From sequence record DRR378314_367: a stretch of 36,204 nt of DNA; one strand, written 5' to 3'. Positions 13,158 to 36,204 of this stretch are shown here, in pieces. Below the pieces are notes generated by a model, which had not been told where the DNA came from, ran no database searches, and was given only the letters and a program-made list of their open reading frames with translations. Positions within the stretch are counted from its first letter, which is position 1. Each line of letters opens with the position of its first letter. A program made the translations under genes and the position numbers.

Positions 13158-14009
13158 ATGTCTGCTCTTCCACCTCTCAACGCGATGCGCGCCTTCGAGG
13201 CCTCGGCACGTCACTTGAACTTTCGTCTGGCAGCCGAAGAAATTGGCGTCACGCAGGGGGCGGTTGCACAACAGGTGCGCGGGCTTGAGGCGCGACTGGG
13301 GATTGCACTGTTCGAACGGCTTCCGCGTGGGTTGCGCTTGACCGAAGCCGGACGCCGGTTCCACGCGCCTCTGCGCCGGGCGTTTCATTTGATCGAGGAA
13401 GCCGTCGATGAACTGTCCGATCAGCGGCAGATCACGATCTCGGTCACGCCCAGCTTTGCCTCAAAATGGCTAGTGCCCCGCCTGAACGATTTTGTGTCCC
13501 GCTTTCCCGATATCTCGGTTCAGGTCGACGCACGTGAACGACTGGCTGATTTCCAGTCGGACGGGATCGACATCGCAGTGCGTCAAACCCGGTCACCAGT
13601 TGCACGGGGATTAAAAGCCACACCACTTTTCTCGACCGAGTTCGTTGTTGTTGGCAGCCCGGAACTGGCATCGCAAATCTCTGGTCCTGACGATTTGATG
13701 CAGCACGTTCTGCTCAGCGATTCACACGGGCTGTGGCCTCTGTTTCTGGAACGCGTCGGGGTCGAGGGGCGGCCACGGATGATGAGTTTCAGTCAGACCA
13801 GTCTGGCGATTGACGCCGCTATCTCGGGGCAGGGTTTTGCGCTGGCCAATGCGCCGCTTGTGTCGGCTGAACTGGCCTCGGGCCGGTTGATGCAGCCGCT
13901 ATCTGAGGTGCTGGTTGATGATCTCAGTTTTTTCATCGTCACCCCACAGAAGCCGCGCCAACCCGAGCTGGTGCAACAGATGCGCGATTGGCTGCTGTCT
14001 CAGGTCTGA
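13158..14009 (+). CDS. LysR-family regulator, GcvA-like
   Basis: LPPLNAMRAFEASARHLNF..AAEE..VTQGAV, SFASKWLVPRL. Divergent from the SDR gene. Confidence 0.93.
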   Translation: MSALPPLNAMRAFEASARHLNFRLAAEEIGVTQGAVAQQVRGLEARLGIALFERLPRGLRLTEAGRRFHAPLRRAFHLIEEAVDELSDQRQITISVTPSFASKWLVPRLNDFVSRFPDISVQVDARERLADFQSDGIDIAVRQTRSPVARGLKATPLFSTEFVVVGSPELASQISGPDDLMQHVLLSDSHGLWPLFLERVGVEGRPRMMSFSQTSLAIDAAISGQGFALANAPLVSAELASGRLMQPLSEVLVDDLSFFIVTPQKPRQPELVQQMRDWLLSQV

Positions 14010-14902: not shown

Positions 14903-14925
14903 ACTATCTATGATTATTCATGAAT
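14899..14925. promoter_or_regulatory. Candidate LysR operator: TCATA-N5-TATGA plus adjacent ATTCATGAAT palindrome
   Basis: Two dyads at 14899-14913 and 14916-14925; the first overlaps the LysR start codon. Confidence 0.55.
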
Positions 14926-14978
14926 GGTTTTGGTGTCCATGCCAGAGTAGGGGGAATACAGCAAGCAAGAGGTGCGCG

Positions 14979-17900: not shown

Positions 17901-18191
17901 CCCGAGCAACCCGAATACGAAAACCACCCATTCACTTTGAAGTTGATGAAATCGGGTCGGGACCTGACCGTTCCGGCTGACAAACACGCAGCGCAGGTGT
18001 TGAACGAAGCTGGCTATCACGTGGATATAAAATGTTCGGACGGAATTTGCGGGGTCTGCAAGTGCGGGGTGATGTCCGGTGAGATCGAGCATCGCGATTT
18101 CGTGCTGTCCAACAAACAACGCGAAGGTGCGATCATCCTGTGTCAAAGCCGCGCGGCAGAGCCAGACGGGGTGATCGAGATCGATCTGTGA
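14979..18191 (+). CDS. rdhA: Self-sufficient catabolic reductive dehalogenase (cobalamin + 2x[4Fe-4S]) fused to an FNR-like flavin/NAD(P)H domain and a [2Fe-2S] ferredoxin
   Basis: SGLGEVSRIG, GPRLKSGAVTTDMP..DKPIDFG, CGSCNKCARECP and C...CGRCMKTCPW clusters. C-terminal RQYSM, GRGGS, GGGIGITP, YTCGP and CSDGICGVC..C. No TAT leader. ATG 14979 follows GAGGT; 1070 aa. Confidence 0.9.
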   Translation: MGIRFFSDKNRPVHLGSYPLERLARQDQMPDLAQVTPMRALSFHRPEHPESIVNAMGEFQAMLDAIRDGFVNPVPSEIPFDPTDRANHLKAFGYFNDASMMGCGPLPSDAMLAEPRRNPDIDRLAHALRTRQTKTLASGIDVIMADLKESMEAAPRPIGSHSHAIVFLYEFNRDPDPSEPGADWIMDAQDHRACLLATENAVVIANYIRLLGFDARAHTAMSSEVDLGKLAVAAGLASVEDGAVVVPWLGKRFGLAAVTTEMEIAHDRPLRPIAEQPWLRTQGPAWWLGAGFAKNALNRDAYAKRRYVDGAHSFEKLKRVDSPTTYIDEDNVARVPKRADMFARAQFGDMGKSLQDATKGGHYVRKSAPSFAQRRALGAFVLLQDGDSAEVEQPSDAERNAANIKAATYFLGADAVGLSRCPEWSWYSHDATGEEIVPPHDQAISMIIDQGYETMEGSSGDDWIAVSQSMRAYLRFSLLGGVIAQQIRNLGYKAKAHTVMDGEVLQPPLLLLSGLGEVSRIGEVILNPYLGPRLKSGAVTTDMPMAHDKPIDFGLQTFCGSCNKCARECPSGAITAGPKLMFNGYEIWKSDSQKCATYRITTPGGAMCGRCMKTCPWNLEGLFKERPFRWAAMNIPQAAPALAKLDDVVGNGGLNDTKKWWWDIELEPDGAYRPSQHPLNRRDLQKDLDLKYEDQTLAVYPAPLAPHPWPYPFIMDREAGIAAYEAMVTAEDYKARKAAGDMSVIHQYQVAGDAPVMRVELTKVDQMTTDVTKYEFSTLDGAPLPEWTAGAHLDVLVSPEFLRQYSMSGDPSDRGTYQIGVLREDEGRGGSALLHRIFNEGRKVFISKPINHFELDETATKTFLMGGGIGITPMIAFAHRLHGLGKPFELHYSASTRAGAGYLDDLAAMPWADHVHYHFSDEGTRADLAVVLGGYQDGWHVYTCGPDRFMDGVIQAAEQQGFPEEARHLEYFSVPEQPEYENHPFTLKLMKSGRDLTVPADKHAAQVLNEAGYHVDIKCSDGICGVCKCGVMSGEIEHRDFVLSNKQREGAIILCQSRAAEPDGVIEIDL

Positions 18192-18320
18192 TCCATCACG
18201 AAAAAACGACATTTTGAATCACAAAAATTGGTCGTTCCAGCCATGGACGCCACCGATTTGCTGCACTAACGTCCCCGGCGAACCCCAGTCTACCCTGATC
18301 AACAGGTGCGAGGTATTTTC

Positions 18321-19187
18321 ATGGACTATCACAGCCCCGCCAGCTTTGCCGAGGCGTCGGCTCTGGCCGCAAATGCGACGGGCATCACCCGGTTTCTGGC
18401 AGGCGGCACCGATGTGCTGGTGCAACTGCGCTCAGACTTGGTGACGCCTGATACTCTGATCGACGTCAAAAAGATCAATGGCGTCGGTGACATCAAGCGC
18501 AATGCCGATGGCAGCTGGACGCTGGGCGTCGCTGCCACCGGTGCCGAGATGAGCGAACATCCCGAACTGGGCCGTGACTGGCCCGGCGTGGTCGAAGCGA
18601 TGGACCTGATCGGATCGACTCAGGTGCAGGGACGCGCGACGCTGACCGGCAATCTGTGCAACGGCTCTCCTGCGGCGGATTCGGTGCCTGCGATGGTTGC
18701 GGCGGGGGTCACGGTCACCGTGACCGGGCCGGATGGCGACCGTGAGGTTGCGGTTGAAGACATCCCGACTGGCCCCGGTAGAACTTCGCTGGCCAAAGGT
18801 GATCTTATCTCGGCCGTCAATATCCCTGCGCGCGGAGACAACGGCGGTGACGCTTACCTGCGTTTTATTCCACGGACCGAGATGGATATCGCTGTTGTCG
18901 GTGTCGGAGTGAACCTGCAGCTGGATGGCGATACCATCGCCGAGGCTCGCGTCTCGCTGGGTGCCGTAGCCCCAACCGTCCTGCTGGTTGAAGACTGTGC
19001 CGACGCGATTATCGGCACCACGCTGGATGACGCCGCGCTTGACGCACTTGCCGCTGCTGCCTCTGCTGCCTGCAACCCGATCGATGACAAACGCGGCACC
19101 ATCGCGTTCCGCACCGAGGTCGCTGGCGTATTAGCCAAGCGCGCCGCGAAAATCGCCTATGCCCGCGCGAAGGGAGAAGATCTATGA
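18321..19187 (+). CDS. Xanthine dehydrogenase-family molybdenum hydroxylase, FAD-binding (medium) subunit
   Basis: LAGGTD, ATLTGNLCNGSPAADS, SLGAVAPT, PIDDKRGT..FR. Start MDYHSP follows GAGGT. Confidence 0.92.
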   Translation: MDYHSPASFAEASALAANATGITRFLAGGTDVLVQLRSDLVTPDTLIDVKKINGVGDIKRNADGSWTLGVAATGAEMSEHPELGRDWPGVVEAMDLIGSTQVQGRATLTGNLCNGSPAADSVPAMVAAGVTVTVTGPDGDREVAVEDIPTGPGRTSLAKGDLISAVNIPARGDNGGDAYLRFIPRTEMDIAVVGVGVNLQLDGDTIAEARVSLGAVAPTVLLVEDCADAIIGTTLDDAALDALAAAASAACNPIDDKRGTIAFRTEVAGVLAKRAAKIAYARAKGEDL

Positions 19188-19663
19188 GTAAGCTCCACGT
19201 ATCTACCACCGTGAACGGAGACGCGGTTGAATACCTTTGTGACCCACGCGAAACCCTGTTGGATTGTCTGCGCGACAAGTTGAATCTGACCGGTTCGAAA
19301 GAGGGCTGCGGCACCGGCGATTGCGGTGCGTGCTCGGTCAGCGTCGACGGTCGCCTGGTGTGTTCGTGCCTCATGCTGGGTGTCGAGGCCGAGGGAAAGC
19401 AGATCGAAACTGTCGAAGGCATCGCGGATGGCGACGTTTTGCACCCGCTGCAGAAGAAGATGATCGAATATGCCGCCCTGCAATGCGGTATCTGCACTCC
19501 GGGCATTCTGGTTGCGGCCAAATCATTGCTGGAAAAGAACCCCGATCCCACGGAAGAAGAGACCCGGTATTGGCTGGCAGGCAACCTTTGCCGCTGCACC
19601 GGTTATGACAAGATCATTCGCGCCGTATTGGATACTGCGGCTGAAATGCGGGAGGCTTCGTAA
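19184..19663 (+). CDS. Xanthine dehydrogenase-family [2Fe-2S] (small) subunit
   Basis: GCGTGDCGAC..SC, QCGICTPG, GNLCRCTGY. ATGA overlap with the upstream gene. Confidence 0.95.
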   Translation: MSKLHVSTTVNGDAVEYLCDPRETLLDCLRDKLNLTGSKEGCGTGDCGACSVSVDGRLVCSCLMLGVEAEGKQIETVEGIADGDVLHPLQKKMIEYAALQCGICTPGILVAAKSLLEKNPDPTEEETRYWLAGNLCRCTGYDKIIRAVLDTAAEMREAS

Positions 19664-21915
19664 TGGCTCTGGACGATCGCAAATCTGACTTCACATTCGT
19701 CGGCACACGCCCTGATCGCCCCGACGGTCTGGACAAGGTCACAGGTCGCGCCAAGTTCGGCGCAGATGTTTCGGCCCCCGGTATGTTGTACGGCGCGATT
19801 CTGCGCTCGCCCCACGCGCATGCGCGGATCGTCAGCATCGATGCGTCCAAGGCTGAGGCGCACAAGGACGTCAAAGCCGTCGTCACCCGTGCCGACTTCG
19901 CCGATGTCCCGTTCAAGCCGGGGCTTGGAGGCGAATTCTGGAACGTTCTGGAAAACGTCATGGCGGGCGAAAAGGCGCTCTATGACGGGCATGCGGTTGC
20001 TGCTGTGGCGGCCACATCGGCTTTGGCGGCACGCGATGCGCTCAAGCTGATCGAAATCGAATACGAGGTGCTGCCCCACGTCACCGATGTGGACAAAGCG
20101 ATGGCCTCCGACGCACCGGTCATTCGCGAAGGTGCTGCGGATTATTCTGTGCCCGAAGGGATGCACCCCAACGTGGTGCGCTATCACGAAAGTGGCCACG
20201 GAGATGTCGAGGCCGGTTTCGCCGAGGCCGATCTGGTCATCGAAGACAGCTTTGTGACTGAGGCGACCCATCAGGGCTATATCGAACCTCATGCCTGTCT
20301 TGCTTCGCTTGGCATGGATGGCAAGGGAGAGTTGTGGTGCACGACTCAGGGTCATTGGTACGCACAGAAATACTGTGCCACATTGCTGGGTATCGAAACT
20401 GCGCAATTGCGCGTGACCGCTTCTGAAATAGGTGGAGGTTTTGGCGGCAAGACCACTGTGTTCATTGAACCGGTGGCGCTGGCGCTCAGCCGCAAGGCCA
20501 ACCGCCCGGTTAAGTTGGTGATGGCCCGGTCCGAGGTATTCCGGTCAACCGGGCCAACCTCTTCCGCGTCGATGGACATCAAGATCGGGATGAAGAAAGA
20601 CGGCACCATTACCGCTGCCGAAGGGATCTTTCGGCTGCAAGGTGGCGCGTTCCCCGGCGCGCCCGGCGATCTGACGGCCATGTGCGCCTTTGCGCCCTAT
20701 GATCTGACCAATGTGCGGCAGGTGGGGTACGACGTGATGGCCAATCGTCCCAAGCAAGCCGCCTATCGCGCGCCCGGCGCTCCGATGGGGGCATTTGCAG
20801 TTGAATCTGTTTTGGACGAGCTGTGCAACCAACTGGGTCTTGATCCTGTTGATGTGCGCCTGAAAAACGCAGCGGCTGAGGGCTCCAAAGCGAGCTATGG
20901 CCCGACTTATGAGCGTATCGGCCTTGTCGAAACCCTTGAAGCTGCCAAGGCGCATCCGCATTATTCGACCCCGCTGAAGCCGGGGCAGGGGCGCGGTATT
21001 TCATGCGGTTTCTGGTTCAACCATGGGGGCGAGACGTCTGTATCGCTGGCCTTGTCCGAAGACGGCTCGGCACAGGTTATGGTCGGCACGCCCGATATCG
21101 GTGGCTCACGCGCGTCAATGGCGCTGATGGCCGCCGAAGTGCTGGGTATTCCCTATGAGAACATCCGGGTCACCGTCGCCGACACGGCAACGCTGGGGTA
21201 CAACGACGTAAGCCATGGTAGCCGTGTCACGTATGCCTCGGGTCTTGCGACGATCAAGGCGGCAAATCATGCGGTTGAGCGCCTGTGCGAACGTGCGGCG
21301 GCCAAGTGGGGTATTCCGGTCGATGCGGTGAAATGGGAAAACGGCTGTGCTGTGCCTTCGGGCCCCAATGCGGGCGATTTCGATCCGCTGGCTCTGGCCG
21401 ATATCACTGCCGATATGGGTGCAACCGGTGGTCCGATCTCGGGCCATTTCGAAGCGACACCCGAGGGTGCGGGCGTGTCATTTGGTACCCATATCGTCGA
21501 TGCCGAGGTTGATCCGGAAACCGGCAAAACCAGCATCATACGCTATACCGTCATTCAGGACGCGGGGAAGGCCATCCATCCGGCCTATGTGGAAGGCCAG
21601 TTTCAAGGTGGTGCTGCACAAGGCATCGGCTGGGCACTGAACGAGGAATATATCTATGGCGAAGATGGTCGTTTGCAGAATTCGATCTTCCTCGATTACC
21701 GCATCCCGGTCGCCAGCGACTTGCCGATGATCGATACCGTGATCGTCGAAGTGCCGAACCCCGGCCACCCGTTTGGAGTACGCGGTGTCGGTGAAACAGG
21801 CATCGTGCCGCCCCTTGCAGCCATTGCAAACGCGGTGTCCAACGCCGCGGGTGTACGCTTGCGGCAACTGCCGATGTCACCACCCCGTATTCTGGCAGCG
21901 CTGAAGGACAAATGA
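19663..21915 (+). CDS. Xanthine dehydrogenase-family molybdopterin-binding (large) subunit
   Basis: KVTGRAKF, LRSPHAHA, GGGFGGK, AYRAPG, EGQFQGGAAQGIGWAL.E, RGVGETG with catalytic Glu. TAATG overlap. Confidence 0.95.
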   Translation: MALDDRKSDFTFVGTRPDRPDGLDKVTGRAKFGADVSAPGMLYGAILRSPHAHARIVSIDASKAEAHKDVKAVVTRADFADVPFKPGLGGEFWNVLENVMAGEKALYDGHAVAAVAATSALAARDALKLIEIEYEVLPHVTDVDKAMASDAPVIREGAADYSVPEGMHPNVVRYHESGHGDVEAGFAEADLVIEDSFVTEATHQGYIEPHACLASLGMDGKGELWCTTQGHWYAQKYCATLLGIETAQLRVTASEIGGGFGGKTTVFIEPVALALSRKANRPVKLVMARSEVFRSTGPTSSASMDIKIGMKKDGTITAAEGIFRLQGGAFPGAPGDLTAMCAFAPYDLTNVRQVGYDVMANRPKQAAYRAPGAPMGAFAVESVLDELCNQLGLDPVDVRLKNAAAEGSKASYGPTYERIGLVETLEAAKAHPHYSTPLKPGQGRGISCGFWFNHGGETSVSLALSEDGSAQVMVGTPDIGGSRASMALMAAEVLGIPYENIRVTVADTATLGYNDVSHGSRVTYASGLATIKAANHAVERLCERAAAKWGIPVDAVKWENGCAVPSGPNAGDFDPLALADITADMGATGGPISGHFEATPEGAGVSFGTHIVDAEVDPETGKTSIIRYTVIQDAGKAIHPAYVEGQFQGGAAQGIGWALNEEYIYGEDGRLQNSIFLDYRIPVASDLPMIDTVIVEVPNPGHPFGVRGVGETGIVPPLAAIANAVSNAAGVRLRQLPMSPPRILAALKDK

Positions 21916-24591: not shown

Positions 24592-25568
24592 TGCTGATTG
24601 ATGGCCTGCAATATGCCAACTGGTCAGAAAAGATTTTCCGACAACTGCGCGAGGGCGGCGTGGACGCGATCCACGTCACCATCGCCTATCATGAGACTTT
24701 CCGCGAAACTGTTCTGAACTTCGAGAAATGGAACTGCTGGTTCGAGCAGTACCCGGACCTCATCATGAAAGGCCGATGGGCCAGCGATATCGACATTGCT
24801 CGTGATACCGGGCGGACGGCTGTGTTCTTTGGGTTTCAGAACCCATCCCCCATCGAAGATGATATCGGGTTGGTTGAAATCCTACACGATCTGGGCGCGC
24901 GGTTTATGCAGCTGACCTATAACAACCAGTCGCTGCTTGCGACGGGGTGTTACGAGGCTGAAGACACTGGCATCACCCGCATGGGCAAGCAAGTCATCAA
25001 GGAAATGAACCGTGTAGGGCTTGTCGTCGACATGAGCCATTCGGCCGACCGCTCGACCATCGAGGCCGCTGAATTGTCCGAGCGTCCCATCGCCATCACT
25101 CATGCCAACCCGCATGAATGGTCGCCTGCGTTGCGCAACAAGCGGGATGAGGTGATCAAAGCGGTGACCGAGAAAGGTGGAATGCTGGGCTTTTCAGTCT
25201 ATCCTCATCACTTGAAGGACAAGTCCGAATGCACCCTGGACAGCTTCTGCGAGATGATCGCGCGCACTGCCGACAAATATGGGGTGCAGAACCTGGGGAT
25301 TGGCACTGATCTGTGCCAGGACCAACCCGACAACGTGGTTGAATGGATGCGTGTTGGGCGCTGGACGAAAGAAATAGACTATGGCGAAGGTTCAGCCTCG
25401 GCTGCAGGATTTCCGCCAATGCCGCACTGGTTCCGCGACAATCGGGATTTTGGCAATATCGAGCATGGATTGCGCGCGGTTGGTATGAATGCTGAGGAAG
25501 TCGCAGGAATCATGGGGCGCAACTGGTATCGTTTCTTTGCCGACAACTTTGGACCTCAACAGCCATGA
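24591..25568 (+). CDS. Membrane dipeptidase (M19)-family amidohydrolase with altered metal ligands
   Basis: QLTYN, EMNRVGLVVDMSH, ITHAN, RNK.DE, GIGTD, IMG.NW.R. TGATG overlap with ALDH. Confidence 0.88.
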   Translation: MLIDGLQYANWSEKIFRQLREGGVDAIHVTIAYHETFRETVLNFEKWNCWFEQYPDLIMKGRWASDIDIARDTGRTAVFFGFQNPSPIEDDIGLVEILHDLGARFMQLTYNNQSLLATGCYEAEDTGITRMGKQVIKEMNRVGLVVDMSHSADRSTIEAAELSERPIAITHANPHEWSPALRNKRDEVIKAVTEKGGMLGFSVYPHHLKDKSECTLDSFCEMIARTADKYGVQNLGIGTDLCQDQPDNVVEWMRVGRWTKEIDYGEGSASAAGFPPMPHWFRDNRDFGNIEHGLRAVGMNAEEVAGIMGRNWYRFFADNFGPQQP

Positions 25569-27250
25569 ACAGCGCGCATCCAGTCATCGAACGCCGCGAT
25601 CCCGCGACAGTGATGCGCCTGTCGCGATTGGGATCGCTGCACCAATGTCGCCTAAGCTTTATGCGCCAGCTCACGCGCCGAATGGCCTCGGAGCAATGGG
25701 TCTTTTCCCGTCCGGTTTTCGACATTGATGAAAAGGGTGTGGGTTACGCGGTCTATTCTGCGCAAGGACCCGACCGCACTTATTCGCTGATTGCATTTGC
25801 CCATGATCTGCCACCCGAGCAGCGCTCGGACCGGGTGATTGCAGAGGCCTGGGATGCCACGTTCACATTGTTCGATGGTGTTCCGACCGCAGACGACATC
25901 CAACGCTTGTCACAGAACGTACCGCTGCAAGAGGCTGGGCGGATTAGCGAAAGCGAATTGTCACTGTCGCGTGCCAATCGATCGGTCCGGTTGTGGGATC
26001 ATGTCGTCGCCCGGCTGGCCGCTGGTCAGCAGCCCGATCTCGAACAGATTTATCAGGTTGGGTATTTGATGCGGACGACCGCAGTCTACGGATCGGGCAA
26101 GTTCGGTGCGGCGGATCGCGAGAAGATTGCTGACCGACCCGAGGTGAGTGGCCCGTTTCAGGCCGAGATGTTGTCGGTTTATCTGACCCGGATATTCGTA
26201 CGCGATCTCGTTCAACACATGGCAACATCCAAAGGCAGAGAACAGACCGCGCGGTTGGATCCGCAGATTGCGCGCTGGCTAGGGATTGGTAATTCGACCG
26301 GGTTGGGAATGGCGCCGTTCATCGTCAATCATCCCGTTCTGTTCAACAACTGGATCATGGTGCGTGAAGAAGCGATCGCGCGGGTCCGATCGATTGAAAC
26401 TGCTACTGAGGCGGAAATCGCGCATTTCCATTCGGTGTTTGAACGCAGCAGATTGTCGATCTCTTGGTGGCAATCTGCGCATCCGATCCAGATTGAAAAG
26501 CTTGCAGCGCTGAACGCCGACCTGAATGCGATCTCAGAACATCTTGATCATGCCGATTTGGGGGGAAATCAGCCTTGGAACCAATTGGTCCTTTGGTCTC
26601 AGACCGCGCTTAGCGAAGAGGGACAGGAACTATTGGCATCGCTGATCCTGGAACCCTATGGCGCACTGGTGGATGGGCTGGTCAGTTGTATGGCTGATGG
26701 CAATAGCCAAGCCTTCACGATCGATGGTGCAATGTCGGTCGAAAATGTGCGTGACTTGATCCGCACAGGCTTTGACTGGGCGTTCGATCTTGAGTGGGCC
26801 TCGCCCGAGCATTGCGCGCGCGTTTGGTATGTATCGGAAGAAAAGCTTGAACCCCGGCTGGGCGAACGATTTGACGAGCCGGTCGCGGACTATGAGCAGC
26901 CGCTTGCCCCAGCGCGTGATGCAGCGCTGGCTTTCAAGGCGCTTTCGGATTGGCCGGATGATACGTCCGTCGCCGAATTCCTGCAGCGTTATCCGGAACA
27001 TCGCCATACAGTGCGCCGCGCACAGATGAGCCGTCACGCACCTTATGGCGAAATCCGTGACAATACGATTGGAGCGGACGTCCTGCCCATCGATATGCTG
27101 CGAGCCAAGCTTTCGTTCTTTGGGGCGACGCATTTTGATCCCCGCTCGGACCGCTGGGTGCGTATTTGTATGTATGCAGGTGCCCCCTATCCGGAAGAGC
27201 TGAGTTCAGAAAACGCTGATCTGTGGGTGTACCCGGAGATGGAGCAATGA
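25565..27250 (+). CDS. Protein of unknown function (561 aa)
   Basis: Long ORF coupled at both ends by ATGA overlaps inside the operon; no family motif recognised. Confidence 0.85.
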   Translation: MNSAHPVIERRDPATVMRLSRLGSLHQCRLSFMRQLTRRMASEQWVFSRPVFDIDEKGVGYAVYSAQGPDRTYSLIAFAHDLPPEQRSDRVIAEAWDATFTLFDGVPTADDIQRLSQNVPLQEAGRISESELSLSRANRSVRLWDHVVARLAAGQQPDLEQIYQVGYLMRTTAVYGSGKFGAADREKIADRPEVSGPFQAEMLSVYLTRIFVRDLVQHMATSKGREQTARLDPQIARWLGIGNSTGLGMAPFIVNHPVLFNNWIMVREEAIARVRSIETATEAEIAHFHSVFERSRLSISWWQSAHPIQIEKLAALNADLNAISEHLDHADLGGNQPWNQLVLWSQTALSEEGQELLASLILEPYGALVDGLVSCMADGNSQAFTIDGAMSVENVRDLIRTGFDWAFDLEWASPEHCARVWYVSEEKLEPRLGERFDEPVADYEQPLAPARDAALAFKALSDWPDDTSVAEFLQRYPEHRHTVRRAQMSRHAPYGEIRDNTIGADVLPIDMLRAKLSFFGATHFDPRSDRWVRICMYAGAPYPEELSSENADLWVYPEMEQ

Positions 27251-27876
27251 GTTTCTCTCTCAACGAGGTCGAAGCCACCGCCAAACGCGCAGCGCGTGGT
27301 GCAGGCTATACTTGGGGAGTTGCAGAAGACACCGCGAAGGCTACGCGCTGGCTTTGTGCCCAGGGTCTAGATGGCCCGGTGGTCCTGTCACGTGCGCTGG
27401 AGCATGGGTTCGCAGCTTCATTGGAAGATCACGTACCAGCGGGATCGCAAAGCGATTGGGCCGGCAACAAAGACCTGTGCCCGTTGATGGCCGGGGCGAT
27501 GCTTTCGGATTGTTCCGACTTTCTGCGATCCGGTCCAATTCGCATCAGAGAGGTTGCCGTGCCAATGCTGCTGCTGCCATTCGCCGCCAACGCCGCGCGC
27601 AGTCTGCAAGCGGTCATCACCGTCACATCCGGAGATTTTTCCGCTGCGACTGATGGGGTGCGGCTGGCACTGAGAAATGAATGTCCGGCTTTTGCGGACC
27701 ATGTCGAGGTCGCGTTGGGCGATGGCCTGACTGATCCGTGTTCGCTGCAAACCCGTGCAACGCCTGATCCGGCTGCGTGGAAGATACTCAACCAATTTGC
27801 CCATCGTACCTACGCCCCCGCGACAGAAGCATCCCGCTTGCTTGGCGCAGGGGCTGGGCTTTCCGACAATGACTGA
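27247..27876 (+). CDS. DUF3726-like protein
   Basis: Start MSFSLNEVEATAKRAARGAG.. overlaps the upstream stop and follows GGAG; ends ..RTYAPATEASRLLGAGAGLSDND. Family name recalled, not searched. Confidence 0.75.
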   Translation: MSFSLNEVEATAKRAARGAGYTWGVAEDTAKATRWLCAQGLDGPVVLSRALEHGFAASLEDHVPAGSQSDWAGNKDLCPLMAGAMLSDCSDFLRSGPIRIREVAVPMLLLPFAANAARSLQAVITVTSGDFSAATDGVRLALRNECPAFADHVEVALGDGLTDPCSLQTRATPDPAAWKILNQFAHRTYAPATEASRLLGAGAGLSDND

Positions 27877-28899: not shown

Positions 28900-28975
28900 G
28901 GCCTTGTAGCGCAAATCCGGGGCGCATGAAAATAATGCCTGGAAATCGGGACACGTGCGAACAGGGAGGAAACAC

Positions 28976-30790
28976 ATGTCTATGAAGGATCCTTTTACCG
29001 ATCTGGAGATCAAGCGATCTACGGGTGGGTTCTATGAAGGTCACAGCGTCGAGATTGCCTTGCTCAGCAAGTCAATCATGGTTGCACTTGTGATATGGGC
29101 ACTGGTCTGGCCAGCAAACGCTAACGGTGTTTTGGGAAGCCTGAACTCGCGTCTGCTGGAAGACTTCAACGCCTTCTACATCATCATCGTCGGCTTCTTT
29201 GCTTTCTTCCTGTTTGTTGTGGCCGCGCTGCCGCAAACTGGTAAACGTCTTATGGGCACAGAAGGGGAAAAGCCCGAGTTCTCAGACTTTTCATGGTTTT
29301 CGATGATGTTCGGCGCCGGTTTGGGCGTTGGGTTGATGGTATTTGCCACCGCCGAGCCCCTGGGTTTGTGGGGGTCAAATCCGGTCGTGATTGCGGGTGA
29401 GGTCATTGGCAATACCGAAGACGCGTTGCAATCAGGGTATCGCTATACCTTCCTGCACTATGGTTTCCATGCCTGGGCGATCTATGTGGTGACCGGTTTG
29501 TCGCTGGCTTACTATGCCTACACCCGTAACATGCCGCTGACGATCCGCACAGCGCTGACCCCGTTGTTTGGCAAGCTGATGAATGGCTTTCTTGGTCATG
29601 TCGTCGACGTTCTGGGTGTTGTTGCGACAATTCTGGGCGTATCGGTGACAATCGGCTTTGGTATATCGCAGTTCATAGACGGTCTTTATGCCATCACCGG
29701 CATGCAGTGGATCATGGACCTAAGCGGTGATGTCCCAACGCCCAGCACCGTTGGATTGCTGGCAGGTTTGATTGTCATCATGGGTCTGTCGATCGTTTCG
29801 GCTGTCTCGGGTGTTGGTCGTGGTGTTAAGTATCTGTCGAACTTGAACCTGGTGCTATCGCTGGTCCTGTTGCTGGTCTTCGTCGTCTTTGGGTCATTCC
29901 TGTTTGCGATGACCACCTATGCAACGGCGTTTGTTGACTACATCTTGCACTTCGTCTCGCTCAGCTTTGGTGCATTCAACCCGCAATCAGCAGCAGCGTT
30001 CGACGCGGCCCTGCCAAGTGAAGCCGCGCCGTTCGCCGACGCTCTTTACGCCGGTGCGACCAACCCATGGGGTTCGTTCGACGGGTTCAGATCAGGGCTG
30101 GAAGGCGAGGCAGCAGCGTTGCCGGAAAGCGTTCTTGCTTCGGTTTACGCAGCAGGTGACCCGGGTCGCCAGTTTGGCTGGCAGGCAGGGTGGACCACGT
30201 TCTACTGGGCCTGGTGGATCGCGTTCTCTCCCTTCGTGGGCCTGTTTCTGGCGCGCATCTCAAAGGGGCGCTCGGTCCGTGAGTTCATCATCGGTTGCGT
30301 ATTCGCACCGGCGTTGGTCTGCTTTGCCTGGATGACCATTCTGGGTGGCACCGCGATTGACCTTGAACTGAACGGAACTGCAGAAGGTGCAATCGTTGGT
30401 GCATCGAACACCGCCAAGCTGTTCGTTACCCTGCAAGAGATGATCTCGGGCGGTCTGCTGTCTGGCATCACCGTGATGTGTGTGGTGCTGATCATGACAT
30501 TTCTGGTCACATCGGCAGACTCGGGCATTCTGGTGATGAATACCATCATGTCGGGCGGTGATCAGAACATCGGCAACAAGCACAAGATCATCTGGGGTAT
30601 GATCCTTACAGCTGTAATCGGGGCCTTGATCCTCGCGGCAGGTGAGAACAACCCGATGGATGCGTTGCGAAACGCGATGATCATCGGTGCGTTGCCCTTT
30701 ACGGTGGTCATGGGCCTGATGTGCGTGGCGCTTGCCAAAGCACTGTATCGCGACGGTTTGCGGCAAAAGCACGCTGCACCGGCCGAGTAA
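28976..30790 (+). CDS. BCCT-family (betaine/carnitine/choline) transporter
   Basis: PEFS.FSWFSMMFGAGLGVG, WTTFYWAWWIAFSPFVGLFLARISKGRSVREF signature, FLVTSADS. ATG 28976 follows GGGAGG. Confidence 0.95.
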   Translation: MSMKDPFTDLEIKRSTGGFYEGHSVEIALLSKSIMVALVIWALVWPANANGVLGSLNSRLLEDFNAFYIIIVGFFAFFLFVVAALPQTGKRLMGTEGEKPEFSDFSWFSMMFGAGLGVGLMVFATAEPLGLWGSNPVVIAGEVIGNTEDALQSGYRYTFLHYGFHAWAIYVVTGLSLAYYAYTRNMPLTIRTALTPLFGKLMNGFLGHVVDVLGVVATILGVSVTIGFGISQFIDGLYAITGMQWIMDLSGDVPTPSTVGLLAGLIVIMGLSIVSAVSGVGRGVKYLSNLNLVLSLVLLLVFVVFGSFLFAMTTYATAFVDYILHFVSLSFGAFNPQSAAAFDAALPSEAAPFADALYAGATNPWGSFDGFRSGLEGEAAALPESVLASVYAAGDPGRQFGWQAGWTTFYWAWWIAFSPFVGLFLARISKGRSVREFIIGCVFAPALVCFAWMTILGGTAIDLELNGTAEGAIVGASNTAKLFVTLQEMISGGLLSGITVMCVVLIMTFLVTSADSGILVMNTIMSGGDQNIGNKHKIIWGMILTAVIGALILAAGENNPMDALRNAMIIGALPFTVVMGLMCVALAKALYRDGLRQKHAAPAE

Positions 30791-30801
30791 ACAAGCATTT
30801 T

Positions 30802-30837
30802 CCGGGCGGTTGCAATGCGGCCGCCCGGCATCCTTTC
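30802..30837 (+). terminator. Probable intrinsic terminator after the BCCT gene
   Basis: GC-rich hairpin CCGGGCGGT..GCCGCCCGG (30802-30828) 11 bp after the stop; only a weak T-tract (CATCCTTT). Confidence 0.55.
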
Positions 30838-31008
30838 AAGCCGCGATACCGGTCTAGTGAAGCACGGTGAAGGTATCGGACGAGCACGAATATCAAGCAT
30901 AATCAATCTTGTACATGGCACTCTGCCAATGGGGTAAGGAATCCCCACCTTGCCGTCAGCTGACAACACACTTATCTCCGAGTGCACATTTTGGATCGGA
31001 GTAAGCAC

Positions 31009-32010
31009 TTGAGCAATACCATCCAGGTCTCAATACGCGGTACGGGTCATTATCTACCGGGTGCACCGGTGGCCTCAGAATCCCTTGATGCCAGAGAGGG
31101 TCTGGAGCGCGGGTATCTTGCACATGAGACCGGCGTTGAATTTCGCCACTTTGCTCGGGGCATAGATCAGATCGAAATGGCGGTCGGTGCTGCGAGGCGT
31201 GCACTGGATCAGGCCGGATTGACAGGGGATGATATCGACCTTGTTATTTCCGCCAGCGGGGTTCCTTTCCAAACGCTGCCTTCTACTGCACCGCTTGTGA
31301 TGCGGGAACTTGGGATGGCTGATGGCAAGGCTGCGGCGTTTGATGTCAACAGCACCTGCACCAGTTTTATCAGCGCATTCGAGGTTGCCAGCAGGCAGGT
31401 CGCCGCGGGCGTTTGCCGCCATGCTTTGATCGTATCGTCCGAGATAGCATCCCGTGGCCTGCCTTGGGAAAAACGGCCCGAAGTCGCCGCGCTGTTTGGA
31501 GACGGAGCCGCCGCTGCAGTTATCGGAGGCGCAAGCGGACACGAGGAAGGTATCCAAGCGTGCCTGATGCGCAGTTATCCATCGAAATACGAAGCATGCC
31601 AGATCGCAGCTGGAGGGACGCGGTTTGACTATCATGAAAATCCTGATGAGTTCGCCCGCAACACCTTGTTTCAGATGAATGGTGCTGATCTGTTCAAGCT
31701 GACAATAAAGCATTTCCCTGATTTCGTGGATGAGTTGCTGGAGAGGGCGGGTTGGAGAAAGGATGATGTTGATCTTGTCGTCCCCCATCAGGCCAGCCCG
31801 CATGCTCTGAAACATATGGTGCGTCAAACCGGGTTTGGTGCCGGAAAGATCGTTAATCTGGTGGCAAATATTGGCAATCAGATCGCAGCTTCGATTCCGA
31901 CAGCGCTGGACCACGCGCGTCGAGAGGGGCGGGCGGAACCGGGAACCCGCTTGCTGATGCTGGGGACCTCAGCGGGTGTTTCATTCTCGGGTCTGGCCAT
32001 ACGGATGTGA
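31009..32010 (+). CDS. 3-oxoacyl-ACP synthase III (FabH)-like condensing enzyme
   Basis: Cys-His-Asn triad in STCTSF, VPHQAS and IGNQIAAS; ALFGDGAAA. TTG 31009 is 7 nt after GGAG. Confidence 0.9.
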   Translation: MSNTIQVSIRGTGHYLPGAPVASESLDAREGLERGYLAHETGVEFRHFARGIDQIEMAVGAARRALDQAGLTGDDIDLVISASGVPFQTLPSTAPLVMRELGMADGKAAAFDVNSTCTSFISAFEVASRQVAAGVCRHALIVSSEIASRGLPWEKRPEVAALFGDGAAAAVIGGASGHEEGIQACLMRSYPSKYEACQIAAGGTRFDYHENPDEFARNTLFQMNGADLFKLTIKHFPDFVDELLERAGWRKDDVDLVVPHQASPHALKHMVRQTGFGAGKIVNLVANIGNQIAASIPTALDHARREGRAEPGTRLLMLGTSAGVSFSGLAIRM

Positions 32011-32996
32011 ACGCCGTGCGGGTGCTGGTAACTGGGGCAACTGGATTTCTGGGTGGCAAGGTGTGCTGCGTCCTGCGGGATCGGGGTTTTGCTGTTGTTG
32101 CCACCGGTCGCTCGGTGCATCGTTGTGCGGAATTGGCTGAGCAGGGGTTCGAGGTTCGGCCTGCCGATCTGTCTACACCTTTGGAACCCTCGCTGTTTGG
32201 CGCGCTAGACGCTGTTGTTCATGCCGCGGCTCTCTCTGCACCTTCGGGTCCGCTGCCGGCGTTCCGCTCAGCGAATGTAGACGCCACTCGCAACATTGTG
32301 GCACTTGCCCGACGGGTGGGGGTGCGTCGTTTCGTGAATATCTCCTCGCCCTCGGTCTATTTCGCACCACAAGATCAGTTGGATGTCAGGGAAAGTTGCA
32401 AATTGCCTTTGCCGTTCAACAACTATGCGCGTACCAAGGCAGAGGCCGAGCGTATCGTGCTGGATGAGCCATCGATTGGTCCCATCAGCCTGCGCCCTCG
32501 CGGGATCTACGGCCCCGGCGATACGGCTTTGTTGCCCAGACTTTTGAAAGCGGCGCAGGCGCATCCTCTGCCTTTGTTTCGGGGTGGGCGGGCCAAAATC
32601 GACCTGACGCATGTGTCTGATGTCTGTGAGGCTGTGGTTGCGGCCTTGATTGCGGGTCCTGAGACGGAAGGTGAGGTGTTTAACATTTCCGGTGGTGAAG
32701 TTCTGCCCATCAGACAGATCATCGAAAAGGCGTGCACGCGTGCGGGCATTCAGCCGAGATGGCGGCCAATGCCGATCAAACCCGCGCTTGCATCTGCGCG
32801 ACTACTTGAACGACTAAACACCCTGCTTCCTGGTACAGGTGAACCAAAGATCACGGCCTATGCGCTTGCGCTTTTGGCATTTGAGCAAAGCCTCAATATC
32901 GAAAAAGCCGCCAGAGTTTTGCAATGGCGGCCGAAAATTCGTTTTGATGAAGGGCTTGAGGACGTGTTTAGAACTAGCGCTGAGGGCATGATGTGA
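32007..32996 (+). CDS. Extended SDR (NAD-dependent epimerase/dehydratase; 3-beta-HSD/OleD-like)
   Basis: TGATGFLG, VVHAAA, ISSPSVY, YARTK (YxxxK), LRPRGIYGPGD. GTGA overlap. Confidence 0.9.
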   Translation: MNAVRVLVTGATGFLGGKVCCVLRDRGFAVVATGRSVHRCAELAEQGFEVRPADLSTPLEPSLFGALDAVVHAAALSAPSGPLPAFRSANVDATRNIVALARRVGVRRFVNISSPSVYFAPQDQLDVRESCKLPLPFNNYARTKAEAERIVLDEPSIGPISLRPRGIYGPGDTALLPRLLKAAQAHPLPLFRGGRAKIDLTHVSDVCEAVVAALIAGPETEGEVFNISGGEVLPIRQIIEKACTRAGIQPRWRPMPIKPALASARLLERLNTLLPGTGEPKITAYALALLAFEQSLNIEKAARVLQWRPKIRFDEGLEDVFRTSAEGMM

Positions 32997-33820
32997 AACT
33001 GCACTTTGCCAACAGCGCGTTTATCTCAGCGCCCGAATGCGTCGTGCAGCCTGGCGGGCGCTGGCGCACTACGCTTGGGCTGCGGGTGCGATATGGCATA
33101 TTGGTGCACCCCCGGCATGGCCCGGTTCTGATTGATACGGGCTATAGCAAGGATATCTTCGAAGGGACGCGCAGCTTTGGTTTGCGCGCTTATGCTGCCG
33201 CCTTCGGTCCCGTGCTTGCGCAGGATGGTCAGACTGAGGTTGCCTTGAACCAGCTCGGTTTTGCGACCTCGGATGTAAGCAAGATTATTATCACCCACTT
33301 CCATGCTGATCATGTTTCGGCTTTGCGCCGCTTTCCGCAGGCAGAGATTATCACGGACCTTTCTACTCTGACGACCATCCTTAACAGGGGCGGATTTACA
33401 AACCTGCGTCACGGCATCTTTCCCGAACTTCTGCCACATGATCTGTTGCATCGAGTAGTTGATATCGCTGGGTCGCCCATTGCGCGGGCACCTTTGACGT
33501 TGGGCATCGGGCGCGATCTGTTTGAGGACGGATCGGTTATCGCAGTCGATCTGGCTGGCCATGCCGAAGGGCATTTTGGGCTTTGTTTCCCGCAGCTTGA
33601 TCCTGTTCTGCTTTACGCCTGCGATGTCCAGTGGGTACAGGCGGCTTTGGCAATGCCTCGACAGCTCCCACTATTGGGGCGGATCGTCTCACAGAATAAG
33701 CACGATGCTTTGCGCTCTAGCCGCAAGGTGGCAGAATTCCAGCGCGCTGGCGGTACGGCTTTGCTTTGCCACGATCCCGCGCTGACACCCTTTGATCTTG
33801 AGCAACTGTCCAATGACTGA
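32993..33820 (+). CDS. Metallo-beta-lactamase-fold hydrolase
   Basis: LIDTG, THFHADH (HxHxDH), GHAEGH, ACD, CHD. GTGA overlap. Confidence 0.9.
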   Translation: MKLHFANSAFISAPECVVQPGGRWRTTLGLRVRYGILVHPRHGPVLIDTGYSKDIFEGTRSFGLRAYAAAFGPVLAQDGQTEVALNQLGFATSDVSKIIITHFHADHVSALRRFPQAEIITDLSTLTTILNRGGFTNLRHGIFPELLPHDLLHRVVDIAGSPIARAPLTLGIGRDLFEDGSVIAVDLAGHAEGHFGLCFPQLDPVLLYACDVQWVQAALAMPRQLPLLGRIVSQNKHDALRSSRKVAEFQRAGGTALLCHDPALTPFDLEQLSND

Positions 33821-35075
33821 CCTGTGGCATATTGCGCGGTCATTTGCTGCCACGCGGTACCACACACGCAAAGGCCTTTCGCGTGCGGCTTTCATGCGCT
33901 GGCAGGACAAAGCCGTTCAACGCTGGCTGGAACATGACGTGCCAAAGGTAAGTTACTATGCCTCTACCGAAGCAAGGCTTGAAGCCCTGCCAATCATCGA
34001 CAAGACAATTCAGATGGCTGATTTTGGCGCGTTCAATCTGGGCGATGTATCCGCTTCAACCGGCTGGCGGTGTTTTGAAACGACCCAAGCCCACGGCGAG
34101 ATCAGTGTTGGCGCCAGCACAGGCACCAGCGGCAACCGCGCGCTATATATGATCACCCCGCAGGAAAGGCTGCGCTGGCTGGGAACCATACTGGCCAAGG
34201 CGCTGCCCCGGTTTCCGTTTCAGGCCGAGCGCGTGGCGGTGATCCTTCCGCAGTCATCTGCGCTCTATGATACGGCGGCGCGCGCCAATCGATTGAAATT
34301 GGCCTTTTTTGATCTGACTGAGGGAATGGAATACTGGTCCAAGCAGCTCGCCGCGTTTGATCCGACCTGTCTGGTTGGTCCACCACGTGTTCTGCGTGCC
34401 TTGGCCGAGGCGGATATCGGGATTAAACCCCGGATCGTATACGCGGGTGCAGAAACGCTTGATCCGGTGGACCGTCAAGTGATTGAGGCAAAACTTGCGG
34501 TTCAACTTGGACAGATTTACATGGCCACCGAGGGGCTGTTTGGTGTCAGCTGCGCACATGGGAACATTCATCTGGCTGAAGACGCTGTAAAATTTGAATT
34601 CGAACCCGCCGGAGATGGGTTGGTGAACCCAATCGTGTCCTGCTTTCAGCGTCGATATCAGATCATGGCACGTTATCGGATGAATGATCTGTTGCGCCTT
34701 ACGCCTGGGCCTTGCCCATGTGGTTCTCCCTTGCAGGCGGTCACTGAAATCGTAGGTCGGATTGATGATGTTTTTATTTTCAATACGGGCGGAGCGCAGA
34801 TCTATTTCACCCCTGATGTCCTGCGGAATGCAGTTTTGGATGCTGATCGGAGTATCGATGATTTCCGAATTCTGCGTGTTGCAGAAAACCGAATCGAACT
34901 TATCCTGCCCGACCTTTTTGAGCCTGAGATAGTGCAAAAACCTAAAGTCGCATTGGAGCGATTGCTCCACGCACGATGCGAAGACATTGCGGTTTCGGTG
35001 AGAGTTGCCCAGCTAAGCCCCGACCCACATCGCAAGCTTCGGCGGGTAGAAAACAAATGGCGGCCAGAACCCTGA
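33813..35075 (+). CDS. Adenylate-forming enzyme related to coenzyme F390 synthetase / PaaK
   Basis: LPIIDK, STGTSGNR P-loop, YMATEG, RYRMND, GRIDD. ATG 33813 overlaps the MBL gene end by 8 bp. Confidence 0.85.
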   Translation: MTDLWHIARSFAATRYHTRKGLSRAAFMRWQDKAVQRWLEHDVPKVSYYASTEARLEALPIIDKTIQMADFGAFNLGDVSASTGWRCFETTQAHGEISVGASTGTSGNRALYMITPQERLRWLGTILAKALPRFPFQAERVAVILPQSSALYDTAARANRLKLAFFDLTEGMEYWSKQLAAFDPTCLVGPPRVLRALAEADIGIKPRIVYAGAETLDPVDRQVIEAKLAVQLGQIYMATEGLFGVSCAHGNIHLAEDAVKFEFEPAGDGLVNPIVSCFQRRYQIMARYRMNDLLRLTPGPCPCGSPLQAVTEIVGRIDDVFIFNTGGAQIYFTPDVLRNAVLDADRSIDDFRILRVAENRIELILPDLFEPEIVQKPKVALERLLHARCEDIAVSVRVAQLSPDPHRKLRRVENKWRPEP

Positions 35076-36094
35076 TGAACGGAGCGTTCCTAATCAATGC
35101 CTCGCGCAGCGGTTCGACCATGATGTCCACCATATTGCGCCAGCATCCGGATGTGCTCAGCCTGTCCGAACTTATTGCGACTCAAGGCGCGCGCGCGTTG
35201 CTGCCGGGCGGGATCAGCGGGCAGGCCTTTTGGAAGCAGCTTTCCGAACCCACGGCACTTATGCGTCAATTGGCCAACCCGAAGACGGCCCCGGGTGAGT
35301 TTCTTTATCATACGGTAGATGAGCGCCGATTTGACCCGTTCAACTGCCCACCTATCCTTGCAGTCACACTGCCACATCTCTTTGAGGATCCGGATGCGGT
35401 TTTTGATGATCTGGCCGACATAGTTCCTGATTTGCCAAGGCAGAATCGGGCTGATCACATGAGGGCCGTAATCAACAATCTTGGCGAAAAAACGGGTCGA
35501 AAATTCTGGGTTGAACGGTCCGGAGGCACATTGCTTGCAACTTCTGCGCTCGCCCATGCGTTTCCTGAGGCAAGATTTGTCGTCCTCTTGCGTGACGGGC
35601 GCGATGTCAGCCTGTCGATGCAGAACTACAAACCGGCCCGGTTTGTGATCTGGTTCTGGAAACTCGCATCCCGCTTTGGCATCGATGTATTCAAACCCGG
35701 CACACAAATCGGCAGCGCCGGGTGGATCGCCATGGCGGAAAAACTCTCGGGGAGGGCATTGCCGATGGCACGCATCCTCAACACCAAGCCCTCTATCGCA
35801 GACGCCGCCGCCTGCTGGTCAGCCCTGACCAAAAGTGGCCTTGAACAGTTCAGGGATATCCCGAACGAACGCAGGTTGGTCATGCGCTATGAAGCGGTCG
35901 TGGCCGACCCAAAGACTGAACTGTCCCGCCTGTCGCGCTTTCTTGCGTTGCCGAAGAACTCAAATTGGCTCGAATTTGGCGCGGGTGTCCCTCGGGCATT
36001 CCCACCGCGCCATACCGCATTACCCATGTCGGAACAGCGTGCCCTTGCCAATTTGACCGAGGCTGCGCGGGCAGAGTCCGATCAGCTTGTGTGA
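35075..36094 (+). CDS. PAPS-dependent sulfotransferase
   Basis: 5'-PSB loop SRSGSTM, LRQHPDV..LSE, 3'-PB motif RDGRDVSLS, RYEAVVADP. TGATG overlap with the upstream gene. Confidence 0.85.
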   Translation: MNGAFLINASRSGSTMMSTILRQHPDVLSLSELIATQGARALLPGGISGQAFWKQLSEPTALMRQLANPKTAPGEFLYHTVDERRFDPFNCPPILAVTLPHLFEDPDAVFDDLADIVPDLPRQNRADHMRAVINNLGEKTGRKFWVERSGGTLLATSALAHAFPEARFVVLLRDGRDVSLSMQNYKPARFVIWFWKLASRFGIDVFKPGTQIGSAGWIAMAEKLSGRALPMARILNTKPSIADAAACWSALTKSGLEQFRDIPNERRLVMRYEAVVADPKTELSRLSRFLALPKNSNWLEFGAGVPRAFPPRHTALPMSEQRALANLTEAARAESDQLV

Positions 36095-36154: not shown

Positions 36155-36204
36155 TGGTGCTGCTGGAGAGAATTGAACTCTCGACCTCTCCCTTACCAAG
36201 GGAG
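36155..36204 (-). tRNA. trnT: tRNA-Thr(GGT), 3' half (5' end lies beyond the window)
   Basis: Reverse complement CTCCC-TTGGTAA-GGGAG (anticodon arm, GGT), AGGTC, GAGAG-TTCAATT-CTCTC (T arm), CAGCAGC-A-CCA. Confidence 0.95.

Follow-up and report, generated by a model that had tools for sequence, protein, structure and literature searches.

The 36,204-nucleotide stretch of DNA analysed here (sequence record DRR378314_367; hereafter the window) is Ruegeria-like: two of its proteins, an adenylating enzyme and a sulfotransferase, are 94% and 100% identical, respectively, to proteins of an uncultured Ruegeria sp. Both are encoded near its end, in an operon of five plus-strand open reading frames (ORFs; positions 31009–36094). 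The products are, in order, a FabH-like condensing enzyme (the ketosynthase), an extended short-chain dehydrogenase/reductase (SDR), a hydrolase of the metallo-β-lactamase (MBL) fold, the adenylating enzyme and the sulfotransferase (Table 1). A preliminary description of the locus had called it an orphan five-gene operon. The operon is real, and the description and most of its interpretation stand; the unit, however, is a four-gene core to which an exchangeable sulfotransferase is joined.

The ORFs and their junctions were read from the sequence, and every junction overlaps. The ketosynthase and SDR genes share a GTGA at 32007–32010 (GTG start at 32007, TGA stop at 32008–32010), and the same four letters join the SDR and MBL genes at 32993–32996 (GTG at 32993, TGA at 32994–32996). 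An 8-bp overlap follows at 33813–33820 between the MBL and adenylating genes (ATG at 33813, TGA at 33818–33820). The last junction is a TGATG at 35073–35077, in which the adenylating gene’s stop (TGA, 35073–35075) and the sulfotransferase’s start (ATG at 35075) overlap by one base. All four are junctions of translational coupling. The first gene most plausibly begins at the TTG at 31009, which has a GGAG 7 nucleotides (nt) before it and fits the family profiles better than the GTG at 30982 that would give the longest ORF. The coordinates, junctions and intact catalytic residues reported in the preliminary description all agree with ours, as does its remark that the cassette holds no acyl carrier protein (ACP), transporter or regulator, none being encoded within 31009–36094. 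The upstream intergenic region can be aligned with its counterpart in Ruegeria haliotis (locus L001), within a 5.5-kb match at 73% identity; a scan with promoter and terminator consensus sequences gave no promoter in this region, and nothing above the shuffled background at the ends of the operon.

Table 1. Features of the operon and its presumed leader in the window (aa, amino acids)
Feature	Positions	Strand	Basis
Upstream intergenic region, presumed promoter and leader	30791..31008	+	218 nt from BCCT stop to TTG start
FabH-like (KAS III) condensing enzyme, 333 aa	31009..32010	+	Pfam, NCBIfam and PDB matches
Extended SDR, OleD-like ketoreductase candidate, 329 aa	32007..32996	+	Pfam, NCBIfam
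Metallo-β-lactamase-fold hydrolase, lactonase type, 275 aa	32993..33820	+	Pfam, Foldseek
F390 synthetase-related/PaaK-type adenylate-forming enzyme, 420 aa	33813..35075	+	TIGR02304, PDB
Sulfotransferase of the PAPS type, 339 aa, putative lineage-specific tailoring enzyme	35075..36094	+	Pfam, fold matches

The five enzymes

The ketosynthase matches the Pfam families ACP_syn_III_C (87.6 bits) and ACP_syn_III (63.4 bits), and the NCBIfam model PRK07204 at 298.6 bits, under the cut-off of 402. It also misses the cut-offs of the housekeeping FabH models (PRK09352, 227.2 vs 249 bits; TIGR00747, 200.1 vs 292.1 bits). Its best matches in the PDB are MxnB (4v2p, 174 bits), a FabH (4ryb, 171 bits) and CorB (4yuc, 160 bits), followed at a distance by E. 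coli FabH (125 bits), PqsD (98.7 bits) and the Xanthomonas OleA chains (67–72 bits); the OleA model was absent among the 25 NCBIfam entries listed for this protein. The analogy to OleA drawn for the condensing enzyme in the preliminary description is thus not borne out, with OleA at 72 bits vs MxnB at 174 and FabH at 171. In 30 orthologues C117, H260 and N290 do not vary, and their counterparts in the alignment with E. coli K-12 FabH are C112, H244 and N274. This Cys-His-Asn triad is the one found in β-ketoacyl-ACP synthase III (KAS III); thiolases have Cys-His-Cys. Three further features are common to all 16 cassette ketosynthases compared with E. coli K-12 FabH (L091, 1760–2713). The position of R249, which we take to be an ACP-docking residue, is occupied by His, Phe, Ile, Gly or Ala; the position of N247 is Ser; and an insertion of 8–9 residues with a GGT motif precedes a conserved M-x-G.

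The SDR falls into the Pfam family Epimerase (NAD-dependent epimerase/dehydratase; 109 bits). Its top NCBIfam model is OleD, the 2-alkyl-3-oxoalkanoate reductase, matched over the full length at 172.9 bits, where the cut-off is 580; the sugar-type families HpnA (85.8 bits) and GalE (57.5 bits) lie far below. It carries a GATGFLG (GxxGxxG) and a YARTK motif, and S113, Y140 and K144 are invariant among orthologues. For the SDR of the E. coli cassette described below the nearest family was again OleD (154.3 and 146.1 bits). By these scores, the SDR is a homologue of OleD, not an equivalog.

The MBL protein matches Pfam Lactamase_B at 41.5 bits, and its seven metal ligands (H102, H104, D106, H107, H190, D211 and H260) are invariant in 30 orthologues. 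The AlphaFold model is of high confidence (mean predicted local distance difference test score, pLDDT, 95.7). Nearly all its top Foldseek matches in the PDB are lactonases or hydrolases derived from them, led by AhlX with template-modelling scores (TM-scores) of 0.73–0.82 and followed by 4-pyridoxolactonase, AiiA, GcL and AiiB. Named lactonase equivalogs score far below their cut-offs (AttM, 57 of 390 bits; AiiA, 40.9 of 375; 4-pyridoxolactonase, 36.1 of 325). The protein thus shares with AhlX, AiiA, AiiB/AttM, GcL and 4-pyridoxolactonase the fold and a complete dinuclear metal site; unlike them, it sits in an operon that looks biosynthetic rather than quorum-quenching or catabolic, and the identity is only about 20%.

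The adenylating enzyme matches TIGR02304 over its full length at 239.8 bits, 12 bits short of the cut-off of 251.9, and Pfam AMP-binding at 17.2 bits, where the cut-off is 29.9. Its nearest solved relative is a phenylacetate-CoA ligase (4r1l, E = 1e-8); AjiA1 was also matched in the PDB, and AjiA1 and BagE/FevW, relatives of the PaaK type, are among its weak matches. The stretches STGTSG, YMATEG and GRIDD together with K408, which we take to be the core motifs of adenylate-forming enzymes, are present and conserved in 43 sequences. At E ≤ 1e-30 the family comprises 369 representative clusters among 1.84 billion representatives, and a search of the ESM Atlas with the protein returned only unnamed ‘F390 synthetase-related’ clusters. 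The window operon belongs, or nearly belongs, to an uncharacterised cassette centred on TIGR02304.

The sulfotransferase is recognised by Pfam Sulfotransfer_3 at 68.5 bits (cut-off 27), with conserved SRSGST (residue 10), RDGRD (residue 173) and S181. In fold (model pLDDT 91.9) it is nearest to TPST1/2, the sulfotransferase (ST) domains of CurM (4gbm) and olefin synthase (OLS; 4gox), and the mycobacterial Stf9/Stf1. The TM-scores are modest throughout, at 0.4–0.55, and the best in this list are those of the CurM and OLS domains (4gbm, 0.47/0.55; 4gox, 0.41/0.50), with 16% identity. The matches are sulfotransferases with bound 3′-phosphoadenosine-5′-phosphate (PAP); by analogy, we infer that the enzyme uses 3′-phosphoadenosine-5′-phosphosulfate (PAPS).

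Recurrence of the core and its exchangeable partners

A one-genome-per-species scan with an alignment of 43 members of the adenylating family matched at least 600 stretches, and 594 of 600 encode a relative. The counts below refer to the best 80 loci of these stretches, all found through the adenylating enzyme. Beside its gene, an MBL gene stands in 77, an SDR gene in 76 and a FabH-like gene in 73, and most of the misses fall at contig ends. The four-gene order of the window is kept in 60 of these loci from other genomes: in 51 the genes are colinear on one strand, and in nine (Bacillota and a Victivallaceae metagenome-assembled genome, MAG) an ATP-grasp gene follows the ketosynthase within an otherwise colinear set. 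At ten loci all three partner genes are encoded on the opposite strand, a few kb downstream. In four the ketosynthase is not visible and the locus is cut at the contig start, three show the adenylating gene alone, each time beside a contig end, and three are cassettes that lack the SDR. No adenylating gene among the 80 stands alone where the flanks are complete. This arrangement is far beyond chance. The hosts are Alpha- and Betaproteobacteria, Acidobacteriota, Bacillota, Lentisphaerota and one Bacteroidota MAG, and include Rhodobacterales, Hyphomicrobiales, Caulobacterales, Sphingomonadales, Ramlibacter, an acidobacterial MAG, Bacillus, Lysinibacillus and Paenibacillus.

The preliminary description’s view of genes one to four as a recurring cassette with no known product is therefore upheld in both parts. 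Synteny is conserved (60 colinear and 10 two-strand loci), and open full text, a coverage that leaves out subscription journals and closed supplements, yielded no functional description of the cassette and no published function for the TIGR02304 family or for the operon of E. coli and Ralstonia described below. Two papers name a COG1541 or F390 synthetase gene only in tables (PMC5467263, PMC9823363), and a third places an F390 synthetase beside fatty-acid genes in Desulfotalea (PMC2649909).

What accompanies the core varies. Clustering of all ORFs in the 80 loci gave four families tied to the cassette: an ATP-grasp family (54 loci), a GNAT-like family (54), a VanA-like Rieske oxygenase (44) and DUF3419 (13), the last being the family of the betaine-lipid enzyme BtaA, whose name also appears in papers on betaine lipids. 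The ATP-grasp and GNAT-like genes form a module which occurs with or without the Rieske gene. A FemAB-like reading of the GNAT-like family was considered and left weak, FemAB_like being found in one of 23 members and Acetyltransf_6 in six.

A further module is seen in annotated records of E. coli and Ralstonia wenshanensis. Here an orthologous four-gene core, in the same order, precedes genes for a PAP2 phosphatase, for a protein of the sterol-desaturase family (top NCBIfam model OlsE, an ornithine-lipid hydroxylase, at 66.6 bits) and for an acyl-CoA desaturase, which take the place of the sulfotransferase. The seven-gene unit lies at 4170–11051 of L082 (E. coli KE48 record, between narI and purU) and at 5140–12049 of L086 (R. 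wenshanensis). Of 5426 complete E. coli genomes, 674 (about 12%) carry this 6.9-kb unit, sequence type 131 (ST131) and urinary isolates among them; E. coli K-12 has no such cassette. Against TIGR02304 the adenylating enzyme of E. coli reaches 755.5 bits, and that of the window is 30.5% identical to it.

In a tree built from 85 adenylating enzymes, at least 19 changes of module label are counted (a quick IQ-TREE run with SH-aLRT, an approximate likelihood-ratio test, as the only support measure). Within the five-row clade of the window, three different modules occur, and at one locus none was seen. We read the modules as alternative decorations of one hydroxylated scaffold, and the membrane desaturase/hydroxylase/PAP2 module of E. 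coli and Ralstonia hints at a lipid product.

The sulfotransferase is one of these partners. A tblastn search of a plasmid collection found homologues of it in eight records, and in seven it stands beside the four-gene cassette, in a divergent pair with a TetR gene; these are five records of Ketogulonicigenium vulgare and one each of Paracoccus alcaliphilus and Paracoccus sp. MA. The eighth record, from Gemmobacter, has a protein of 29% identity in a different context. The Paracoccus and Ketogulonicigenium sulfotransferases are 40–43% identical to that of the window, their adenylating enzymes only about 32%, and the latter fall into a distant clade that also has E. coli. On these comparisons, the link between sulfotransferase and cassette is no accident of one lineage, and the sulfotransferase belongs to the cassette. 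Nine adenylating-enzyme clusters and nine sulfotransferase clusters from public assemblies agree in the size of their longest contig; this circumstantial match suggests more five-gene copies in roseobacters. On the P. alcaliphilus plasmid (L088), the cassette with its sulfotransferase directly adjoins sulfate ABC transporter genes. The other flank of that locus holds a set of AMP-binding, carrier-protein and nonribosomal peptide synthetase genes (flanking regions 1–2582 and 9812–15541).

A proposed pathway and its alternatives

The reading we favour, with about an even chance of being right, is that the operon is biosynthetic and combines a conserved four-enzyme core with a dedicated sulfotransferase, by which a hydroxylated acyl or lipid scaffold is O-sulfated. 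The individual steps are derived from the enzyme families. Thus, the KAS III-type enzyme would carry out a Claisen condensation of an acyl thioester with an acyl or malonyl thioester, giving a β-keto-acyl product, and the OleD-like SDR would reduce the β-keto group to a β-hydroxyl. The lactonase-fold enzyme would cleave an ester, thioester or lactone bond, releasing or reshaping the hydroxy acid, and the TIGR02304 enzyme would convert the carboxylate to an acyl-adenylate for the formation of an ester, lactone, amide or thioester. In the Ruegeria lineage, the sulfotransferase would then place sulfate from PAPS onto a hydroxyl of the product, leaving an anionic amphiphile, probably lipid-like. 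Within the cassette, the MBL and adenylating genes are paired most tightly; since they overlap by 8 bp and occur as a pair in Pseudomonas sp. Leaf58, these two steps probably hand over directly. Known relatives of several module enzymes act on a lipid hydroxyl or add polar groups. On the strength of these roles and of the membrane desaturase/hydroxylase module, the most economical proposal is a lipid-like, hydroxylated scaffold whose polar decoration varies.

Several observations weigh against this proposal. The ketosynthase scores nearly equally against a true FabH and the chain-joining MxnB (171 and 174 bits), so that the kind of condensation is left between the decarboxylative FabH type and the chain-joining type of MxnB, CorB and OleA. 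The modelled fold of the MBL protein suggests a lactone or ester as its substrate, not a CoA thioester. The hint of a lipid product comes from the distant E. coli/Ralstonia branch (see the 30.5% identity above), not from the window, and the assignment of the GNAT-like family is weak (Acetyltransf_6 in six of 23 members, and no meaningful PDB match). The core is not indivisible, because in three Paracoccaceae loci (L067, L068 and L070) the ketosynthase, MBL and adenylating genes stand without an SDR between them, and plasmid pBASL58 of Pseudomonas sp. Leaf58 (L084, 6109–8233) carries only the MBL and F390-like genes. Finally, just one of the 80 genome loci has the sulfotransferase, namely that of R. 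haliotis (L001), where the five genes stand in the order of the window.

A broader version of the proposal, less likely than not, is that the core is an unrecognised multi-phylum pathway which resembles the Ole and mycolate pathways by convergence. Such a pathway would yield an acyl scaffold that is hydroxylated, branched or extended, perhaps by way of a lactone, and each lineage would add its own polar head. The heads that might be assigned, tentatively, are sulfate in Ruegeria, Paracoccus and Ketogulonicigenium, a homoserine-type group where a BtaA-like enzyme is present, an amino-acyl group with the ATP-grasp/GNAT-like module, and phospho-type or desaturated products in E. coli and Ralstonia.

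In the OleABCD pathway a thiolase-fold condensation and a reduction by OleD are joined to OleC, a class-I β-lactone synthetase, and OleB, an α/β-hydrolase. CurM and olefin synthase end in a ketoreductase-sulfotransferase-thioesterase (KR-ST-TE) terminal module whose sulfotransferase acts on an ACP-bound β-hydroxyacyl group. The window operon has the four chemistries of OleABCD (thiolase-fold condensation, SDR reduction, ATP-dependent carboxylate activation and a hydrolase-type step) in tight linkage and without an ACP, and would share with CurM and OLS a ketoreduction, a subsequent sulfation of the hydroxyl and a hydrolase at hand. An Ole- or CurM-like route to a β-lactone or alkene can therefore be drawn, although we regard it as unlikely. 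Acyl chains would be joined head to head, the SDR would give a 2-alkyl-3-hydroxy acid, the adenylating enzyme would close a β-lactone, and the lactonase-fold enzyme would open or decarboxylate it; in a variant, decarboxylative elimination would follow once sulfation had made the β-hydroxyl a leaving group, the chemistry of CurM and olefin synthase. The best family of the SDR, the rank of MxnB and CorB (first and third) among the PDB matches of the ketosynthase, the lactonase fold of the hydrolase, the weak matches of the adenylating enzyme to AjiA1 and BagE/FevW, whose chemistry is ester-forming, and the top TM-scores of the CurM and OLS domains all point this way. The sulfotransferase fold matches are, however, themselves weak, OleA lies more than 100 bits below MxnB, and every Ole equivalog cut-off is missed. 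The ketosynthase groups with FabH, MxnB and CorB, the gene order differs from that of OleABCD, and a sulfotransferase is added. The class-I OleC and the α/β-hydrolase OleB are replaced by a PaaK/F390-type enzyme and an MBL lactonase fold, as the preliminary description had seen in setting the Ole-like logic of the cassette apart from OleB and OleC. Unlike CurM and OLS, the enzymes are free-standing, with no ACP or thioesterase domain by Pfam, and the sulfotransferase is dispensable in most cassettes. Furthermore, the BtaA-like, ATP-grasp/GNAT-like and PAP2 modules are easier to reconcile with a product that keeps its hydroxyl or carboxyl than with a hydrocarbon.

Lower again in probability is a small diffusible metabolite or signal made as in the Pqs system, where PqsA, PqsD and PqsE catalyse steps of alkylquinolone synthesis. 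A PaaK-type enzyme would form the CoA ester of a short or aryl acid, the FabH-like enzyme would extend it with malonyl-CoA, and reduction by the SDR, release or lactone cycling by the MBL protein and sulfation would follow; a TetR protein would sense the product. The trio of FabH-like enzyme, MBL protein and aryl-acid ligase does parallel PqsD, PqsE and PqsA in CoA-ligase-type activation, FabH-like condensation, an MBL-fold hydrolase and the lack of an ACP. PqsD is a detectable relative, phenylacetate-CoA ligase is the adenylating enzyme’s nearest solved relative and the MBL protein resembles signal lactonases. TetR genes stand divergently beside the cassettes of Rhizobium sp. BT03, Ketogulonicigenium and two Paracoccus plasmids, and TetR-like matches beside FabH in L056 and L066. 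The window operon, however, has no adjoining regulator and possesses an SDR and a sulfotransferase, with no counterparts of PqsBC or PqsH. PqsD scores under many FabH chains, neither PqsE nor glyoxalase II is among the 48 fold matches listed for the MBL protein, which matches lactonases instead, and long acyl chains are suggested by the membrane desaturase/hydroxylase module of E. coli and Ralstonia. OleA, OleB, OleC, PqsE and an ACP-linked ST-TE were looked for among the operon proteins by profile and structure comparison and not found. The logic of the operon is like that of Ole, and in part like that of Pqs and CurM; judged by these comparisons, it belongs to none of the three.

The genes around the operon are catabolic, and AttM and 4-pyridoxolactonase, both catabolic enzymes, are among the MBL matches. 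This could speak for a degradative cassette. Its lactonase would hydrolyse a lactone or ester, a CoA ester would be formed by the adenylating enzyme, and oxidation of the hydroxyl by the SDR would be followed by cleavage of the β-keto-acyl-CoA by the thiolase-fold enzyme. We consider this very unlikely, given that the ketosynthase has Asn where thiolases have the second Cys of their triad, that the sulfotransferase, BtaA-like, ATP-grasp and desaturase partners are anabolic, and that a gap of 218 nt separates the operon from the one upstream, of which R. haliotis keeps only a broken remnant of the nearest neighbour. Least probable of all is the decoration of a surface glycan with acyl or sulfate groups, the acyl form of which the preliminary description had raised, and in which the SDR would be a sugar-nucleotide epimerase or dehydratase. 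The Pfam family of the SDR would fit, and a glycosyltransferase and an HlyD gene do lie near the cassette of Rhizobium sp. BT03. Yet the window has no glycosyltransferase, flippase or polysaccharide gene, no glycan gene family occurs in five or more of the 80 loci, and the SDR is far nearer to OleD than to GalE and the other sugar-type family; the option finds no footing in these data.

Whichever chemistry applies, a conserved enzyme set without a known product is carried by marine roseobacters, rhizobia, caulobacters, sphingomonads, Bacillus, Paenibacillus and about one in eight complete E. coli genomes. The use of a PaaK/F390-type and a lactonase-fold enzyme as a fixed working pair would be undescribed enzymology, and the interchangeable head-group modules, which suggest one scaffold with several decorations, offer a direct handle on the product. 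If the sulfated, lipid-like product we favour is made by roseobacters, it would be a new pool of organic sulfate esters in marine sulfur cycling. Should the broader reading of one scaffold with several heads hold, a new family of bacterial lipids or surfactants would be at hand, made also by extra-intestinal E. coli lineages such as ST131.

Surroundings of the operon

The remainder of the window consists of catabolic and regulatory genes. Immediately upstream of the operon are genes for an aldehyde dehydrogenase, an M19 dipeptidase, two proteins of unknown type, an Ldh_2 protein and a BCCT transporter (28955–30790), the last of which appears to belong to this preceding catabolic operon. The transporter was considered as a part of the system and rejected. 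It is intact in the window, and R. haliotis has only frameshifted pieces of its C-terminal 118 residues (L001, 5639–5990). In Paracoccus sp. MA a BCCT gene does follow the sulfotransferase (L089, 9256–10989), but it is a different one, 32% identical to that of the window. We judge the adjacency of BCCT genes and cassette to be coincidental.

On the other side, 63 nt separate the end of the operon from a tRNA gene on the opposite strand, of which the window’s end includes the 3′ part (36158–36204, minus strand; Rfam tRNA, 34.4 bits, model positions 26–71). ARAGORN reported no tRNA in the window, and the partial gene was seen only with Rfam. By eye its anticodon loop reads GGT, which would make it a tRNA for threonine. 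No tRNA lies near the R. haliotis copy of the cassette.

At E ≤ 1e-5, Pfam matches neither of two sizeable ORFs of the window, one at 10003–11037 (344 aa) and one at 25565–27250 (561 aa), the latter running into the start of a DUF3726 gene (27223–27876). Both lie in the operon with the aldehyde dehydrogenase, M19 dipeptidase, Ldh_2 and BCCT genes, which a LysR gene adjoins. Finally, the region 14766–21915 encodes a protein of 1141 aa with 4Fe-4S, DmmA-like and 2Fe-2S domains, after which come the three subunits of a xanthine/CO dehydrogenase-type molybdenum hydroxylase.

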